Shown here piece after piece: positions 9,625 through 59,699 of a stretch of DNA of 64,000 nucleotides. The stretch is from Nannocystaceae bacterium (GTDB taxonomy: Bacteria; Myxococcota_A; Polyangia; Nannocystales; Nannocystaceae): NCBI GenBank assembly GCA_046351635.1, contig JAXLYC010000019.1, forward strand, positions 46,035-110,034, in the 5' to 3' direction. Made by a program: the position numbers and the translations under genes. How positions within the stretch are numbered: position 1 is the stretch's first letter; every line of letters starts with the position of its first letter. The notes under the pieces are model-generated. The model was not told where the DNA came from. It made no database searches and saw only the letters and a list, made by a program, of their open reading frames with translations.

Positions 9625-10806
9625 TCACTCGAACGCGGCCAGCGCGGCGCGCAGGCCCGCATCGGTCTCGCCGGCGACCGGCACGATCGGATCGAGCGCG
9701 ATCGCGACGTCTGGGGTCACGCCCGCGCCGTCGACCAGACGATCGTCGGGCGAGAAGTAGCGCGCGACGGTGAACGTCGCGACCGAGCCATCAGGCAGGC
9801 CCAGAACCTCCTGCACGGTGCCCTTGCCGTAGCTGCGCTCGCCGACGATGCGCGCGCGCTTGTGATCCTGCAGCGCGGCCGCGAGCAGCTCCGACGCCGA
9901 CGCGCTGCGACGGTCCTGCAGCACCACCAGCGGCGTGGTCACGTCGCTGCCCTGGCTGTGCGCGGCCTCCTCGCGCAGCAGGCGACCGCCGCGACCCCGG
10001 GTGCGCACCAGTACTCCCGTGGCCACGAACGCGTCGGCGACGACCAGGGCCTCGTGGACCTCGCCGCCAGGGTTGCCGCGCACGTCGAGGATGATGCCGG
10101 CGAGCTCGTGTCGCAGCGCGCGCCGACGCGCGGCGATCGCCGCGAGCACGGCCGCACCGCTCTCGGCCCCGAAGTGGCGCAGCACGACGTGCGCGAAGCT
10201 GCGGCCACGATCGTCGCGGACGATCGCGGCTTCGACCATCTTGGCGCGGGGCTTGTCGAGCACCAACGCGACCTCGCGCGGGGCCGAGCCCTCGCCCGAT
10301 TGCACGAGCAACGCGACCTCGTCGCCGACCGCCCCGGCGAGCAACACCTCGGCCTCGATCTGCGTCGCGATGCGATCGACGTCGCGCTCGCCGATGCGAA
10401 CCACGCGATCGCCCGGCGCGAGCCCGGCGCGGGCCGCCGGCGACGCGGGCGTGACCGCGAGGACCTCGAGCGCGGGCCCCTGCTGGGCGTCGTGCCGCAG
10501 CGCGACCGCGAGCCCGGTGCTGCCGGCGTGCGGTCGCTTCGTCAGCGCCTTGCGCTGGGCCGACGTGAGGAAATGACTGTGAGGGTCCAGCTGCGCGAGC
10601 ATCGCGGACAGCCCCGCGGCGAGCAGGGCCGGCTCGTCCACCGGCTCGACGTAGCGGTCCAACACCGCGTCCAGCGCCTGTTCGAAGCCGGAACGATCGA
10701 GCCGGGGCGCGGGCGCAGCGGCGGGTCCCGGCCCGAAGCTGGCCGTGAGCGCCAGCGTGACCGCGACCCCCAGAGCAAACCCACCGACCGCGCTGCGGGC
10801 CGTCAT
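9625..10806 (-). CDS. S41 family carboxyl-terminal protease (CtpA-like) with PDZ domain
   Basis: The 393 aa product has an N-terminal signal/TM, a PDZ (GDRVVRIGERDV), and S41 motifs ILDVRGNPGG and SASASELLAAALQD…GERSYGKGTVQ. Confidence 0.9.
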   Translation of the reverse strand: MTARSAVGGFALGVAVTLALTASFGPGPAAAPAPRLDRSGFEQALDAVLDRYVEPVDEPALLAAGLSAMLAQLDPHSHFLTSAQRKALTKRPHAGSTGLAVALRHDAQQGPALEVLAVTPASPAARAGLAPGDRVVRIGERDVDRIATQIEAEVLLAGAVGDEVALLVQSGEGSAPREVALVLDKPRAKMVEAAIVRDDRGRSFAHVVLRHFGAESGAAVLAAIAARRRALRHELAGIILDVRGNPGGEVHEALVVADAFVATGVLVRTRGRGGRLLREEAAHSQGSDVTTPLVVLQDRRSASASELLAAALQDHKRARIVGERSYGKGTVQEVLGLPDGSVATFTVARYFSPDDRLVDGAGVTPDVAIALDPIVPVAGETDAGLRAALAAFE

Positions 10807-17538: not shown

Positions 17539-18254
17539 CCGATGGTGTTGCCCATGGTCGTGTTGGTCTGCAGGTCGCCGTCGATGGTGTACTCGACGGT
17601 CTCGGGCGCCGCGTTGTCGCCCAGCGCGACGAAGCTCGCGACGTAGTTGCCGAACTCGGTCGGCTGGCCCTCGTACTCGAGCCCGATCTCCGCGAGGTTG
17701 AGCCCGCCGCCGGCCGGCAGCGCGTAGGCGAACACGCCCGAGATCGTCAGGTAGCGCCCGTCGAGCTCGAACACGCCGTCCTGGTCGGAGTAGTAGACGT
17801 CGTAGAACTCGGTGTCGACGCCCTTGATGTCGCGGTTGGCGTCGCCGAGCGGATCGTCGAGCCGCGTGGTCAGCTCGGCGCCGTCGACCGCGAAGGTGTA
17901 GGGCGTGGGCGCGTCGCCGCCCGAGCGCTCGTAGAAGGTGATCGAGACCAGGCCCGGGATCATGCGCACGGGGTAGGTCGTGGGCCCGCCGCTGCCGCTG
18001 CCGTCGCCGCCGAGGTCGAACTTGAAGTCGCTGCTGGTGCTGCCGTCGGTGCCGCCCATCGACGTCATCGATGCGCCGCCGCCGGTGGTGCCATCGCCAC
18101 TGCCGCTGCCGCTGCCGCCCGCGCTCGACGAGCCGCCTTGCAGGGTCGTGCTCGACAGCGTGGTCGCGGTGCCGCCGTCGCCGCGGCCCTCGTCCGCACC
18201 GCACGCGGCCAGCCAGGTCAGCACCAGTGTCGACGCGGCGCGGCCGGGGCTCAT
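17478..18254 (-). CDS. Hypothetical lipoprotein with Gly/Ser-rich linker (258 aa)
   Basis: ATG 18254 gives MSPGRAASTLVLTWLAACGADEG (lipobox). The ATG overlaps the TGA of the upstream prolyl oligopeptidase (ATGA). Confidence 0.65.
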   Translation of the reverse strand: MSPGRAASTLVLTWLAACGADEGRGDGGTATTLSSTTLQGGSSSAGGSGSGSGDGTTGGGASMTSMGGTDGSTSSDFKFDLGGDGSGSGGPTTYPVRMIPGLVSITFYERSGGDAPTPYTFAVDGAELTTRLDDPLGDANRDIKGVDTEFYDVYYSDQDGVFELDGRYLTISGVFAYALPAGGGLNLAEIGLEYEGQPTEFGNYVASFVALGDNAAPETVEYTIDGDLQTNTTMGNTIGQNERLRVTLGFESSSGPPG

Positions 18255-20476
18255 TGCGTCATCGTAGCAGCTTCGCGCGCGGGCCCGACGCCCAGGGCGT
18301 GGAGCAGGAACGAGAACGTGTCCACGGCCTGCTCGATGTCCTTCTTGATCATGTCCGAACCGCCGTGGCCAGCGTTGGTCTCGATGCGCAGGTATACCGG
18401 CCTGGGCGAGACCGCCTGCATCGCCGCGACGAACTTGCGCGCGTGCATCGGGTCGACGCGGTCGTCGCTGTCCGCCGACAGCATGAGCATCGCCGGGTAG
18501 GGCTTGCCGCGCGCGACGTGGTGGTAGGGCGAGTACGCGAACAACGTCTCGAACTGGCCGCGATCCTCGGCCGAGCCGTACTCGGCGATCCACGTGCGGC
18601 CGGCACCGAAGAGGTGGTAGCGGACCATGTCGAGCAGCGGCACCGCGCACACGACCGCACCGAACAGCTCGGGGTGCTGCGTCATCGCGGCGCCGACCAG
18701 CAGGCCACCGTTGCTGCCGCCCATGATCGCGAGCTTGTCGGGCCGCGTGATGTCCTGCGCGATCAGGTGCTGCGCCGCCGCGGCGAAGTCGTCGAACACG
18801 TTCTGCTTGTTGGCGCCCATACCCGACTGGTGCCAGGCCTCGCCGAACTCGCCGCCGCCGCGCAGGTTGGCCACCGCGTACACGCCACCGTGCTCGAGCC
18901 ACAACACCGCGCGTGAGCTGAAGTTGGGCTCGAGGCTGACATTGAAGCCGCCGTAGCCCACCAGCAGCGTGGGGTTGTCGCCACGGCGCTGCATGTCCTT
19001 GCGGTGGACCACGAACATCGGCACCCGGGTGCCGTCCTTCGACGTGAACCACATCTGCTCGGTCACGAACTGCGAGGTGTCGACCGGGATCTCGATCTTC
19101 TGCCACAGCTCCGACTTGCCCGACGCGATCGACGTCTTGAAGATCTGCGGCGTCTCGGTGAACGAGCTGAAGTAGTAGTAGCCCTCGTCCTCGTCGGGCT
19201 CGCCGAGGATGCCGCTCGCGCTGCCGATGCCGGGCAGCTCGACCTTGCGCACGAGCTTGCCCGCCAGATCGTGAACCTCGAGCTCGGAGTGGGCGTCGCG
19301 CAGGTACGACAGCACCAGGTGGTCGCCGACGACGCTGGCGCCGTCGAGCACCGCGTCGGACTCGGGCACGATCTCGCGCCAGTGTTCGCGCGCGCGCTTG
19401 GCCGGATCGACCACGTACACGCGATAGCGCGGCGCGCCGTCGTTGGTGTGGACGTAGAACTTGTCGCGCCAGGCGCTGACCGAGAAGATCGCCGGCTTGT
19501 CCTTCACCAGCGGCTCGAACTTCGGCGCAGCGGTGGGCGGGCGGCGCTTGCCGCCCTTGGCCCTGCCGAGATCGGCGACGTAGACGTCGCTCGCGCTCCA
19601 GCCGCGCGAGTGGTTCACCAGCAGCCAGCGGCCATCGCGTGACACCGACGCGCCGACGAAGCGCGTGGGATCGTGCGACGCCGGGAACATGATCGGGTCG
19701 GTCTTGGGATCGGTGCCCAGCCGATGGAAGCGCACGTCGGCGTGCCCCGGCAGCTCCGCCACCGGGATCGCGGGATCGGTCGGCAGGTTCACGTAGAAGA
19801 AGCCCGAGTCGTCGGGCAACCACGACGCCGCGGCATAGCGCGCGCCCTCGATGGTGTCGATGGTGAGCTCGGTGTTGGTGTCGAGATCGCGGACGTACAA
19901 CGTCGCGGCGTCGGCGTTGTTGCGCGACAGCTTGTACGCGAGGTAGCGGCCGCTGCGGCTGGGCATCACGCCGTGGACCGAGACGCTGCCGTCGGCCGAC
20001 ATCGTGTTGGGATCGAGCAGCACCTCCTCGGCGCCATGCTCACCCTTGCGCACGTAGTAGATCGCCTTCTCCTTGTCCTTGTGGCTGCGGGTGTAGAAAT
20101 AGCGGCTGCCGCGGTGGGCCGGCGGCGAGATCGAGTCGAGGTACGACAGCTCCGAGAGTCGCTGCTCGAGGTCCGCCCGCAGCGGCAGCGCGCCCAACCG
20201 CTTGCGCGCGTAGTCGTCCTGCGCGTTCATCCACGCTGCGACCTCGGGGTCGTCGACGTTCTCGAGCCAGCGGTACGGGTCGTCGACCTTGCGGCCGAAC
20301 AGGACGTCGCTGACCTCGCTCGCGCGGGTCGTCGGGGTGGTCGTGTCGTCGTGCGCGGTGGGCATCGTGGCGCCGCCACCTCCGGGGGTCGTGCTCGTCC
20401 CGCCGGCGCCGTCGCGGTCCGGTCGGCACGAGAGCAGCGCGAGCGCGAGCAGGGAGACCGTCGGCAGGTGGCGCAT
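18251..20476 (-). CDS. Prolyl oligopeptidase (S9A family) lipoprotein
   Basis: ATG 20476 gives MRHLPTVSLLALALLSC. The N-terminal β-propeller region (DPYRWLEN…) is followed by the catalytic domain: GGSNGGLLVGAAMTQHPELF (nucleophile elbow GxSxGG), D…RVDPMHARKF and …NAGHGG (Ser-Asp-His triad). Confidence 0.9.
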   Translation of the reverse strand: MRHLPTVSLLALALLSCRPDRDGAGGTSTTPGGGGATMPTAHDDTTTPTTRASEVSDVLFGRKVDDPYRWLENVDDPEVAAWMNAQDDYARKRLGALPLRADLEQRLSELSYLDSISPPAHRGSRYFYTRSHKDKEKAIYYVRKGEHGAEEVLLDPNTMSADGSVSVHGVMPSRSGRYLAYKLSRNNADAATLYVRDLDTNTELTIDTIEGARYAAASWLPDDSGFFYVNLPTDPAIPVAELPGHADVRFHRLGTDPKTDPIMFPASHDPTRFVGASVSRDGRWLLVNHSRGWSASDVYVADLGRAKGGKRRPPTAAPKFEPLVKDKPAIFSVSAWRDKFYVHTNDGAPRYRVYVVDPAKRAREHWREIVPESDAVLDGASVVGDHLVLSYLRDAHSELEVHDLAGKLVRKVELPGIGSASGILGEPDEDEGYYYFSSFTETPQIFKTSIASGKSELWQKIEIPVDTSQFVTEQMWFTSKDGTRVPMFVVHRKDMQRRGDNPTLLVGYGGFNVSLEPNFSSRAVLWLEHGGVYAVANLRGGGEFGEAWHQSGMGANKQNVFDDFAAAAQHLIAQDITRPDKLAIMGGSNGGLLVGAAMTQHPELFGAVVCAVPLLDMVRYHLFGAGRTWIAEYGSAEDRGQFETLFAYSPYHHVARGKPYPAMLMLSADSDDRVDPMHARKFVAAMQAVSPRPVYLRIETNAGHGGSDMIKKDIEQAVDTFSFLLHALGVGPAREAATMTQ

Positions 20477-20675
20477 GGGCGCGGATGCTAGCAGTCCGCG
20501 CGAGGTGGGCCGGGTCGGCATGGAGGCTTCGAAACCTGCCGCAGCCGTGCGGTTTCGCGGCGCCGGCCGCCGCGGTGCCGCGGGCATGGCGACCTGCCGA
20601 CCAGCGTGGCGCCGGGTGCCTCCGGCCGCCGGCAGTGGACAGCATCGCCCGGCAGTGCTCCGATGGACGGCGGCG

Positions 20676-21256
20676 ATGCTGGACGCGTCGGAGATCGATC
20701 GGCCCAAGGGCGAGCCGCGGATCCGCGGCGCGATCCTCCTCAACAACCTCGTGGGCTTCGAGGACGTCGTCGGCGCCGACGTGGTCCGGCGCGCCCTGGC
20801 CGGGCTGCCGCCCGAGCTGGTGCACGAGGCCAGCACGGTGGTGCCGGTGGCGTGGGTCCGCGCCGATCTGGTCGACTCGCTGTTCGCCGCGAGTGCGCAC
20901 GCGGCCAAGCGCGAGCCCGAGGAGCTGTTCCCCGAAGCGATCGAGCGCGGGGTCTACCGCACGCTGCACACGGTGTGGCGCGCGCTCATGCACCTGTCGA
21001 GCGACGCGGCCATCGTCATGCGCACCCCGGCGTTGTTCGCCCGCACCTACTCGTGCGGGCGGCTCAAGCGCGCTTCCTCGGCGACGGCGCCGCGGAGGCC
21101 GAGCTGTTCGAGTGGCCGGGGGTCTCGCGCTTCCGCATGCTCGCGATCGCGGCGGGCGTGCGCGCGGTGCTGCGGGTCGCGGGCCGCGACGAGGTCGTGG
21201 TCCGCAGCGAACGCACCGCCGACGGCGCCCGCTTCCGCGCCAGCTGGAAGCGCTGA
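20676..21256 (+). CDS. Hypothetical protein, tentatively of the Myxococcales-restricted DUF2378/TIGR02265-like family; apparent frameshift near 21045–21070
   Basis: ATG 20676 gives MLDASEIDRPKGEPRIRGAILLNNLVGFEDVVGADVV…ARTYSCG in frame 0. It continues as …ARFLGDGAAEAELFEWPGVSRFRMLAIAAGVRAVLRVAGRDEVVVRSERTADGARFRASWKR* in frame 2 (ORF 20606..21256). Confidence 0.5.
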
Positions 21257-28001: not shown

Positions 28002-28781
28002 TCACCCCGCGCCGGGCCACAGCGTGTCTCGGTGCCGCAGCGCGCAGCAGTCGCGCCCGGCGCGGCCGCTGGGGCCGAGCACGGACTCGGGCGCCTGCCG
28101 GGCGCCGAGCGCCACGAGCATCCGGGCCGCAAGGTGCCACGCCCCGGTGCGGTCGAGCCACGGGTCGAGCCAGCCGTTGGTGATCGAGAAGTGCACGTCG
28201 TGCGGCGCGCGATGATGCACCGCGTGGTGCTCGGGCCGCAGGAGCAGGCCGCTGCGCTGCAGTGCGCGGATGATCGGGTGACACGGCCGACGCGCATGGG
28301 CAAAGCGGTGGATCTGGTTGGTGAAGGCGCCGAAGACCAGGAACACGACCCCGGTCGACGTCGCGGCCAGACCCCAGCGGGTCGTGTCGGTCGGCACCCA
28401 CAGCGCGAGCACCAGCAGGATCGGCGTGCACAACGTGATCGCGGGCGCGTTGAGCTCGCGGAAGCTCAGCGTGCAGATGATGCCGGGATGCTCGTGGTGC
28501 TGACGGAAGCGGAACACGAACGCGGGCCCGAGCAGTGGCGTCTTCTCGTCGCCGAAGTTGTCGGCGACAACGTGCAGGAAGCCCGTGGCCAGCGCTGCGC
28601 CGACGACACCGAGCGGCCATAGCAGCACCACCCAAGCGGTGGCGACACCGAAGCGGGCGAAGCCCGCGATGACGTCGATCGTCGCGGCGAGCAGCGCGAG
28701 CGGGAACACCGTCATCGCAACGAGCTCGACGGTGGACATCAGGACGTGAAAACGCCGCGTGCGCGGATGGACCTGCGCCAT
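28002..28781 (-). CDS. Integral membrane histidine-box protein, tentatively CarF/TMEM189 (Kua-domain plasmanylethanolamine-desaturase-like) family
   Basis: ATG 28781 gives MAQVHPRTRRFHVLMSTVELVAMTVFPLALL. TM helices are followed by His clusters FRQHHEHP, IHRFAHARRPCHP and PEHHAVHHRAPHD. Confidence 0.55.
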   Translation of the reverse strand: MAQVHPRTRRFHVLMSTVELVAMTVFPLALLAATIDVIAGFARFGVATAWVVLLWPLGVVGAALATGFLHVVADNFGDEKTPLLGPAFVFRFRQHHEHPGIICTLSFRELNAPAITLCTPILLVLALWVPTDTTRWGLAATSTGVVFLVFGAFTNQIHRFAHARRPCHPIIRALQRSGLLLRPEHHAVHHRAPHDVHFSITNGWLDPWLDRTGAWHLAARMLVALGARQAPESVLGPSGRAGRDCCALRHRDTLWPGAG

Positions 28782-58112: not shown

Positions 58113-58253
58113 AGCTTCGCGTCGCGCGGGCCAGGCGAGTTGCCTGGCCCGGCGCGGTGCAGATTGCCCAACCGCAGCACCGTCACGGGTGCCGCGCGCT
58201 GACGATCGCTGGGATCGTGATTCGGGGCACACCCGTTGCAGAGGTGCGCTCGC

Positions 58254-59699
58254 ATGCGGATGTGGGCAACGTTGCGAAAAGCGTCGATCGCGATCGCGAT
58301 CGCGAGCACCCAGGGCTGCGGCGCGTCACCGGGCGTAGGCCCGTGCGACGACCCGCTGGGCTGCTTCCCCGTCGCGCCGGGTGACACCGGCACCACCGGC
58401 TGGACGCCGACCAGCGACGGCGAGCCCGGCTCGGGCAGCGGCTCGGAGTCCAGCAGCGGCGGCGCGCTCGACACCGGCGAGCCCGCGGGGCCGCAGCTGC
58501 CGTGCGACGTCGCTGCGGCGCTGTCGCGCGCGTGCGGCGATTGCCACGGCGAGGCGCCGAGCTTCGGCGCACCGATGCCGCTGGCGAGCTACGACGACCT
58601 GCACGTGCCGGCGCTGACCGACCCCACGCGCAAGGTCTACGAGCTCGTGGCCGAGCGCATCGAGGCCGACACCAAGATGATGCCGCCCGACGGCGACATC
58701 ACCGACGACGAGCGCGCGGCGTTGTTGTCGTGGATCGAGGCCGGCGCGCCGGCGGATCCGTCGGCGGACTGCGACGACCTCCCGCCGCCCGAGGACGACG
58801 GCGTCGGCCCGGAGTCGCTGCCGTGCGACAACCCGCTCGAGCTGCGGGCCCACGCGCCCGGCAGCGACGAGCCCTTCGCGGTGCCGGCCCAGGGCGCCGA
58901 CGATCTCTACCAGTGCTTCGCCTTCAAGGCGCCGTTCACCGAGCCGACCCAGGCGCTGGCGTGGGCGCCGATCATCGACGACGAGCGCGTGGTCCACCAC
59001 TGGATCTTGTACCGCACGACCGAGCCGCACGAAGACGGCGAGGTGTTCCCGTGCGACGTGTCGCTGCAGGTCACTGCGGAGTTCGTCGCGGGTTGGGCCC
59101 CCGGCGGCGGCAACGTCGAGATGCCGGCCGGCGTGGGTCTCGAGCTCGGCGCACCCGAGGACTACTACGTGCTGCAGCTGCACTACCACAACGCCGCGCA
59201 CTACGACGACGCGGCCGATCGCAGCGGCGTGGCCTTCTGCGTCGCCGACACGCCGCAACCCCAGACCGCGGGCGTGCTGACCCTGGGCACCACCAGCATC
59301 AACATCCCGCCCGGCGCCGTCGGTCACGACGAGGTCGGCACCTGCGGCGGCCTGCTCACGCTGTTCTGGCCCGGCCCGCTGCACGTGCTGGGCTCGTCCC
59401 CGCACATGCACCAACTCGGGCGAGCCTTCCGCACCGAACTCATCCGCTCGGGCGGCGGCGGCAACGACATGATCGTCGACGTGCCGCAGTTCAACTTCGA
59501 GAACCAGGCGATGTACCTGCTCGAGCAGGAGATCGTGGTGAACCCGGGCGACACCTTGCGCACCACGTGCAGCTTCGACAACCCCGGCACCGAGACGGTG
59601 CACTTCGGCGAGGGCACCGGCGACGAGATGTGCTTCGGCTTCGTGCTGGCGTATCCGATCCAGCAGCTGGGCAATCGCAACTGCGGGATCGTGTTCTAG
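58254..59699 (+). CDS. Copper type II ascorbate-dependent monooxygenase-like (PHM/DBH-like) lipoprotein
   Basis: ATG 58254 has GAGGTG 8 nt upstream and gives MRMWATLRKASIAIAIASTQGC. The CuH-like site is VVHHWILY…LQLHYHN. The CuM-like site is PHMHQLG…DEMCFGF. Confidence 0.65.
   Translation: MRMWATLRKASIAIAIASTQGCGASPGVGPCDDPLGCFPVAPGDTGTTGWTPTSDGEPGSGSGSESSSGGALDTGEPAGPQLPCDVAAALSRACGDCHGEAPSFGAPMPLASYDDLHVPALTDPTRKVYELVAERIEADTKMMPPDGDITDDERAALLSWIEAGAPADPSADCDDLPPPEDDGVGPESLPCDNPLELRAHAPGSDEPFAVPAQGADDLYQCFAFKAPFTEPTQALAWAPIIDDERVVHHWILYRTTEPHEDGEVFPCDVSLQVTAEFVAGWAPGGGNVEMPAGVGLELGAPEDYYVLQLHYHNAAHYDDAADRSGVAFCVADTPQPQTAGVLTLGTTSINIPPGAVGHDEVGTCGGLLTLFWPGPLHVLGSSPHMHQLGRAFRTELIRSGGGGNDMIVDVPQFNFENQAMYLLEQEIVVNPGDTLRTTCSFDNPGTETVHFGEGTGDEMCFGFVLAYPIQQLGNRNCGIVF

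Follow-up and report, generated by a model that had tools for sequence, protein, structure and literature searches.

The window analysed here, a 64-kb stretch of DNA from a member of the Nannocystaceae, contains at 28002..28781 on the minus strand a complete coding sequence (259 aa and a stop codon) for a member of the CarF/PEDS1/FAD4 family of membrane lipid desaturases (PF10520); the product carries leucine (Leu105) at the site of the ninth histidine that is diagnostic of PEDS1. Family membership and a di-iron desaturase mechanism are well supported, the di-iron chemistry itself being predicted from the conserved residues. Plasmalogens owe their vinyl-ether bond to CarF/PEDS1, and the eukaryotic pathway is now proposed to have come from myxobacteria. 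As one of the nine histidines is missing, CarF/PEDS1 function is not established for the window protein, and plasmalogen synthesis by it is plausible. In our reading, to which we give an even chance, it is a desaturase of the CarF family that may well have shifted away from canonical PEDS1 in its substrate or regiospecificity.

The open reading frame is a real gene. It runs from an ATG at 28779-28781 to a TGA at 28002-28004, and these start and stop codons agree exactly with the coordinates given in an earlier sequence-only reading of this DNA. Its GC content by codon position (0.71/0.51/0.91) is the coding signature for sequence of 72% GC, and the overlapping alternative frames at the locus lack this signature. 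In addition, the catalytic residues are invariant in 17 relatives that share just 40-68% identity, which indicates that the gene is under purifying selection. From residue 15 onwards the sequence matches NCBI MFO0634635.1 at every position; PGAP begins that protein at M15 (28737-28739), and the upstream ATG at 28781 adds 14 residues. The resulting N-terminal peptide, MAQVHPRTRRF (28749..28781, minus strand), has the sub-clade form MAQxxPRTxxF, and because this form is kept in relatives, the ATG at 28781 is favoured over the PGAP start. A scan for promoters and terminators around the gene returned nothing informative.

The last ~22 residues (28005..28073, minus strand) form an unconserved C-terminal tail. 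Compared with positions 10700-10783 of the corresponding locus (L001) in the near-identical MAG GCA_964505145.1, the tail differs by three 1-nt homopolymer indels, which recode it before the same stop codon is regained; such indels point either to errors in sequencing or assembly or to an unconstrained tail. They could also be taken as signs that the gene is a decaying or non-catalytic CarF relic or a sequencing-damaged ORF, as could the tyrosine found in the related MAG gene L008 (JBEIQZ010000533.1, 2408-3136) at a histidine (CarF H191) that is otherwise universal and essential. We hold such decay to be very improbable, since the frame is intact with a GC3 of 0.91, the indels are confined to the unconserved tail, the eight ligand histidines with their supporting Asp and Phe are invariant in relatives as distant as those above, and the predicted structure is confident. 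As for L008, the near-identical P0017 has histidine at this site, and the tyrosine is possibly a sequencing error or an inactivated copy.

The sequence-only reading had assigned the protein to the CarF/TMEM189-like family from its motifs and had proposed a profile search with PF10520 (Lipid_desat). That search gives 132.9 bits (cut-off 26.4; E 1.6e-38, far outside chance) over positions 4-167 of the 175 in the profile, so that the assignment is confirmed. In addition, the best matches are not to ordinary acyl-lipid desaturases or to hydroxylases, the finding that would have spoken against it: the Pfam scan returned no match to the ordinary acyl-lipid desaturase profile PF00487, and the only other match, to FA_hydroxylase (PF04116), scored 22.5 bits, under the threshold of 31, for which reason a hydroxylase reading was dropped. 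The NCBI record agrees, being named 'MAG: fatty acid desaturase CarF family protein [Nannocystaceae bacterium]'. The family call for this gene is thus already public, and what is new is only that this variant of a known family had not been described before.

The predicted architecture also resembles that of the family. The multiple transmembrane helices noticed earlier agree with hydropathy, which gives four hydrophobic segments (two overlapping runs at ~11-73, then 109-133 and 136-154) positioned as in CarF, one pair ahead of H70 and the other between L105 and H158, and with a helical AlphaFold (AF2) model with a mean pLDDT of 89.5 and a pTM of 0.84. No chain was matched when the PDB was searched with the protein sequence, and a Foldseek search of the model against solved structures found only a weak match to Scs7p (E 0.27). 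To our knowledge, no member of PF10520 has a solved structure. The sphingolipid alpha-hydroxylase Scs7p and the stearoyl-CoA desaturase SCD1, which are solved di-metal membrane enzymes, have no detectable sequence relation to the window protein, and their His-box spacing differs.

The histidines were aligned against M. xanthus CarF and human PEDS1, both taken from the supplements of a recent phylogeny paper (bioRxiv 10.1101/2025.10.10.681575). M. xanthus CarF has histidine at positions 78, 103, 104, 113, 164, 168, 183, 190, 191, 194, 195 and 218 (bioRxiv 10.1101/2025.10.10.681575), of which H78, H103, H104, H164, H168, H191, H194 and H195 are the eight universal essential ones. All eight are kept in the window protein, as H70, H95, H96, H158, H162, H186, H189 and H190, and by this alignment it has a complete set of putative di-iron ligands. 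The first metal-ligand histidine, H70 (CarF H78, mouse H96), lies with its partner D74 (mouse D100) at 28560..28574; the first His box, R91-F92-R93-Q94-H95-H96, at 28494..28511, where H95/H96 correspond to CarF H103/H104 and F92 to mouse F118; the second box, H158-R-F-A-H162 (CarF H164 and H168), at 28296..28310; and the third, H185-H186-A-V-H189-H190, at 28212..28229, where H186/H189/H190 correspond to CarF H191/H194/H195 and H185 to the non-essential CarF H190 (all on the minus strand). The motifs quoted in the sequence-only reading are all present (QHHEHP at 94-99, HRFAH at 158-162 and EHHAVHH at 184-190), H98 within the first of them not being a conserved position. D74 and F92 are invariant in the clade described below; in mouse PEDS1, D100 and F118 are essential and support the metal-ligand histidines (PMC8960569). 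The alignment to the nine conserved histidines proposed at the outset thus succeeds for eight and fails for the ninth, CarF H113 (mouse H131), which is replaced by Leu105 (28467..28469, minus strand).

The ninth histidine is the position on which the functional question turns. It is present in every validated plasmalogen desaturase, and the homologues tested that lack it (three from Arabidopsis and one from Bradyrhizobium) made no plasmalogen (PMC9131029). The corresponding residue is Arg in plant FAD4 and is likewise not His in the alphaproteobacterial homologue, and neither complements (PMC9131029). Mutation of H113 in CarF, or of its equivalent in human PEDS1, abolished the light response of M. 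xanthus (PMC9131029, PMC8960569). In mouse PEDS1, the H131A mutant has 7.4% of activity left, and by the description given there H131 sits in the second shell, behind H121, which is an iron ligand, and does not itself bind iron (PMC8960569). Given this second-shell position and the residual activity, loss of the histidine alone does not exclude formation of the vinyl ether.

Leu105 is not peculiar to the window protein. The 16 closest database relatives, at 40-68% identity, all have Leu at the CarF-H113 position (17/17 with the window protein), and two related MAG genes, L006 and L007, have Gly. The 16 relatives also share the signature FRFRQHH....IC.LSFRELNG, the more distant matches having the canonical PFREHH....ITRHDF.ETNG. 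Beside the first His box, Arg91 replaces the canonical Pro (CarF P99) and Gln94 the canonical Glu (CarF E102); Arg159 stands for Lys, and a new histidine, H216 (28134..28136, minus strand), is invariant in the sub-clade and occurs in 3% of His113-type relatives at that column. The sub-clade is discrete and rare. A pattern scan of one genome per species, across 185,579 species, found it at 6 loci: two in Nannocystaceae, one in Polyangia and three in MAGs labelled Alphaproteobacteria or proteobacterium, two of these three with Gly. When 1.84 billion representative proteins were searched with a profile, two outliers scored 333 and 269 bits, and the next matches formed a continuum that was mostly of the His type. 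Similarly, the string RFRQHH is absent from the full table of PEDS1/FAD4 homologues in the 2025/2026 phylogeny paper (bioRxiv 10.1101/2025.10.10.681575). A 682-aa metagenomic protein, P0025, was also encountered, which carries two PF10520 domains on either side of a third His-rich membrane domain, both PF10520 copies being without the ninth histidine (Asn and Asp).

Comparison with named members of the family places the clade nearer to PEDS1 than to FAD4. The window protein scores 110 bits pairwise against a nine-His Nannocystaceae CarF, 114 against the Leptospira homologue and 90 against M. xanthus CarF (87-114 over the PEDS1-type references), as against 62 for the Bradyrhizobium homologue and 58-79 for FAD4-like proteins. 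Across the clade, the corresponding ranges are 110-146, 108-155 and 89-146 bits for the three PEDS1-type references, and 56-80 and 58-90 for Bradyrhizobium and the FAD4-like proteins. Neighbor-joining bootstraps grouped the clade with its two outliers, P0023 and P0024, in 68% of replicates; the deep nodes are saturated and do not resolve, and the split from FAD4 and Bradyrhizobium appeared in only 9% of replicates. As judged from pairwise and HMM scores only, the clade seems to have branched from the bacterial lineage of CarF/PEDS1 type, and the window protein is among its more divergent members.

PF10520, the eight histidines, the Asp and Phe, four predicted hydrophobic helices, length and a stand-alone gene are common to the window protein, M. 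xanthus CarF and human PEDS1 (TMEM189; plasmanylethanolamine desaturase, EC 1.14.19.77), but identity is just 33-34%, and CarF H113, E102 and P99 are replaced by Leu105, Gln94 and Arg91. The nine-His CarF proteins of Nannocystaceae, for example those of JADJRG01 sp016712315 and N. exedens, come from the same family of bacteria and, at 39-45% identity, rank with the closest relatives that bear the histidine; they have in common with the window protein an HF(F/L)ADNFGS..TP.LGP stretch, but unlike it they have retained REHH as well as ITRH(D/S)F, which contains the ninth histidine. Such nine-His CarF proteins are common (653 matches at E<=1e-20), whereas the Leu clade is rare. The Bradyrhizobium homologue, which does not complement delta-carF, is likewise a bacterial PF10520 protein without the ninth histidine (it has Tyr), but it is only 30% identical to the window protein and has Thr at CarF F100, having lost the conserved Phe.

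Absence of the ninth histidine is also a property of plant and algal FAD4, the delta-3-trans desaturase of phosphatidylglycerol sn-2 16:0, which belongs to PF10520, keeps the eight histidines and demonstrates that the di-iron site is functional without the ninth. The window protein might accordingly be imagined as an acyl-chain desaturase of FAD4 or another type, such as one that introduces a delta-3-trans bond into phosphatidylglycerol, with no relation to ether lipids. This appears improbable, since the diagnostic position is Leu rather than Arg, the first box reads FRQHH rather than FQGHH, and the pairwise scores fall below those against PEDS1-type proteins. FAD4 itself works in the chloroplasts of photosynthetic eukaryotes.

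More weight has to be given to the proposal that the protein is a genuine plasmanylethanolamine desaturase, forming the vinyl ether without the ninth histidine, with R91, Q94 and H216 compensating. We used the NCBIfam CarF equivalog model NF045946, whose cut-off is 500 bits, after calibrating it on known proteins. M. xanthus CarF scored 571 bits, human PEDS1 234, the Leptospira homologue 219 and the nine-His Nannocystaceae CarF 181; the cut-off is therefore narrow, as human PEDS1 is functional and the Leptospira homologue belongs to a complementing group. The clade members P0010 and P0023 scored 159 and 152 bits, near the nine-His Nannocystaceae CarF and well over the non-PEDS1 homologues (Bradyrhizobium 99, FAD4-like 98; range over both 91-99), which, like the closer pairwise scores to PEDS1-type references, the retention of D74 and F92, the new invariant His216 and the residual activity of mouse H131A, speaks for a plasmalogen desaturase. 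So does the genome of one clade member, CAITDR01 (locus L007), which has a GNPAT/FARAT-type gene in the GNPAT tree and no PF10520 entry in the PEDS1 homologue table of the same paper (bioRxiv 10.1101/2025.10.10.681575). Against it stand the presence of the ninth histidine in every validated PEDS1, the loss of the M. xanthus response when that residue is mutated in either CarF or human PEDS1, and the score of the window protein itself on the CarF model, 97 bits (97.2), which is under the cut-off and level with the non-PEDS1 homologues. No ether-lipid genes were found among the ORFs scanned across the window, and nine-His CarF occurs in other Nannocystaceae, so the clade may be an extra paralogue. 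Taken together, we regard a genuine PEDS1 as the main alternative, with an appreciable chance that falls clearly short of even. The plasmanylethanolamine desaturase function implied by the sequence-only reading is thus not established, the protein lacking the ninth histidine and scoring on NF045946 at the level of the non-complementing Bradyrhizobium homologue.

The genomic context was considered as a functional clue and set aside, because the window, L001, the six genome loci and two JGI contigs have no lipid genes in common. In the window, the desaturase gene is convergent with a gene for a 504-aa hypothetical protein, and its start lies 55 bp downstream of a gene for a secreted 559-aa protein (28837-30516, minus strand) that is Ser/Gly-rich in its N-terminal region and has three D8C domains resembling those of uromodulin (PF23283, 149 bits over 3 stretches). 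The latter gene itself follows one for an 843-aa major-vault-protein-like product (30735-33266, minus strand; PF11978 MVP_shoulder 89.6 bits, PF17795 Vault_3 43 bits), a protein of eukaryote type here found in the MAG of a myxobacterium. The vault-like gene thus stands two genes upstream of the desaturase gene, and this order occurs in MAG GCA_964505145.1 as well. Elsewhere in the window, at 58221-59696 (plus strand), lies a gene for a copper type II ascorbate-dependent monooxygenase-like protein with the eukaryote-typical domain pair PF01082 and PF03712. Among the window ORFs scanned (64 kb) there were no AGPS, FAR, GNPAT, carotenoid or CarQRS genes, and a search of the window for a second PF10520 copy found none.

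The only recurring gene order is pyrophosphatase / S9 peptidase / desaturase, which is found in a subgroup resembling Nannocystaceae ST9: pyrophosphatase, S9 prolyl oligopeptidase and Leu-type desaturase genes stand together at 6964-10753 of L005 (Nannocystaceae ST9) and at 4964-8726 of L016 (a JGI contig). An orthologous S9 peptidase gene is present in the window at 18251-20953 (minus strand), 7 kb from the desaturase, and the arrangement is probably residual synteny. At the Gly-variant MAG loci, the desaturase gene adjoins a type III polyketide synthase gene (L006, 4775-5926, minus strand) or an ICMT-family methyltransferase gene (L007, 4971-5564, minus strand). A type III polyketide synthase paired with an ICMT-family methyltransferase is typical of alkylresorcinol and phenolic-lipid clusters. 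These neighbours are not kept at the Nannocystaceae loci.

The link to the Myxococcus light response that had been drawn from the family name does not extend to this locus. CarQ, CarR and CarS have been reported only in Cystobacterineae, and canonical carF is a stand-alone gene (PMC9304148); the CarQRS context was not seen around the window gene. A survey of 27 cultured myxobacteria found carF within the Nannocystineae only in N. exedens (PMC9304148). As a check for a nine-His CarF in the same genome, six CarF-family proteins of the His type were followed to their assemblies; all six lay in assemblies other than GCA_964505145.1 and the MAG of the window.

We therefore return to a CarF-family desaturase with a possibly altered substrate or regiospecificity as our working model. 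The gene would encode a four-helix, cytoplasm-facing di-iron enzyme of membrane lipids, in which H70, H95, H96, H158, H162, H186, H189 and H190 would hold two iron atoms, with D74 and F92 in supporting roles. Using O2 and two electrons from a chain of reductases, it would take two hydrogens off one of the hydrocarbon chains in a membrane glycerolipid. We infer that it is an O2-dependent desaturase acting on the intact lipid near the glycerol backbone, where both characterised members of the family are active. The sites are C1' of the sn-1 alkyl chain for PEDS1 and, for FAD4, C3 of the acyl chain at sn-2. In evolutionary terms, a small Nannocystaceae-centred branch may have split from the bacterial CarF/PEDS1-type lineage and fixed Leu in place of the second-shell histidine, along with the changes of Pro to Arg91 and Glu to Gln94 beside the first His box. 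The Leu-105 clade could then constitute a third functional class in PF10520, defined either by a new substrate or double-bond position or by plasmalogen desaturation without the ninth histidine, a proposal to which we assign slightly less than an even chance.

As the family and its chemistry are known, the stakes are modest. The presence of PEDS1 in genomes is now inferred from PF10520 membership together with nine histidines, and a clade on the PEDS1 side with Leu at the diagnostic position offers a natural test of the role of the ninth. Should the clade make plasmalogens, the nine-His criterion would prove too strict, and a plasmalogen desaturase without the ninth histidine would overturn the nine-His rule for recognising PEDS1 in genomes; should it make none, PF10520 would include one more bacterial lipid desaturation that is still to be characterised. 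In both cases, caution is advisable in transferring the label 'plasmanylethanolamine desaturase' to genes of this kind, as the JGI annotation has already done for the clade member P0006.
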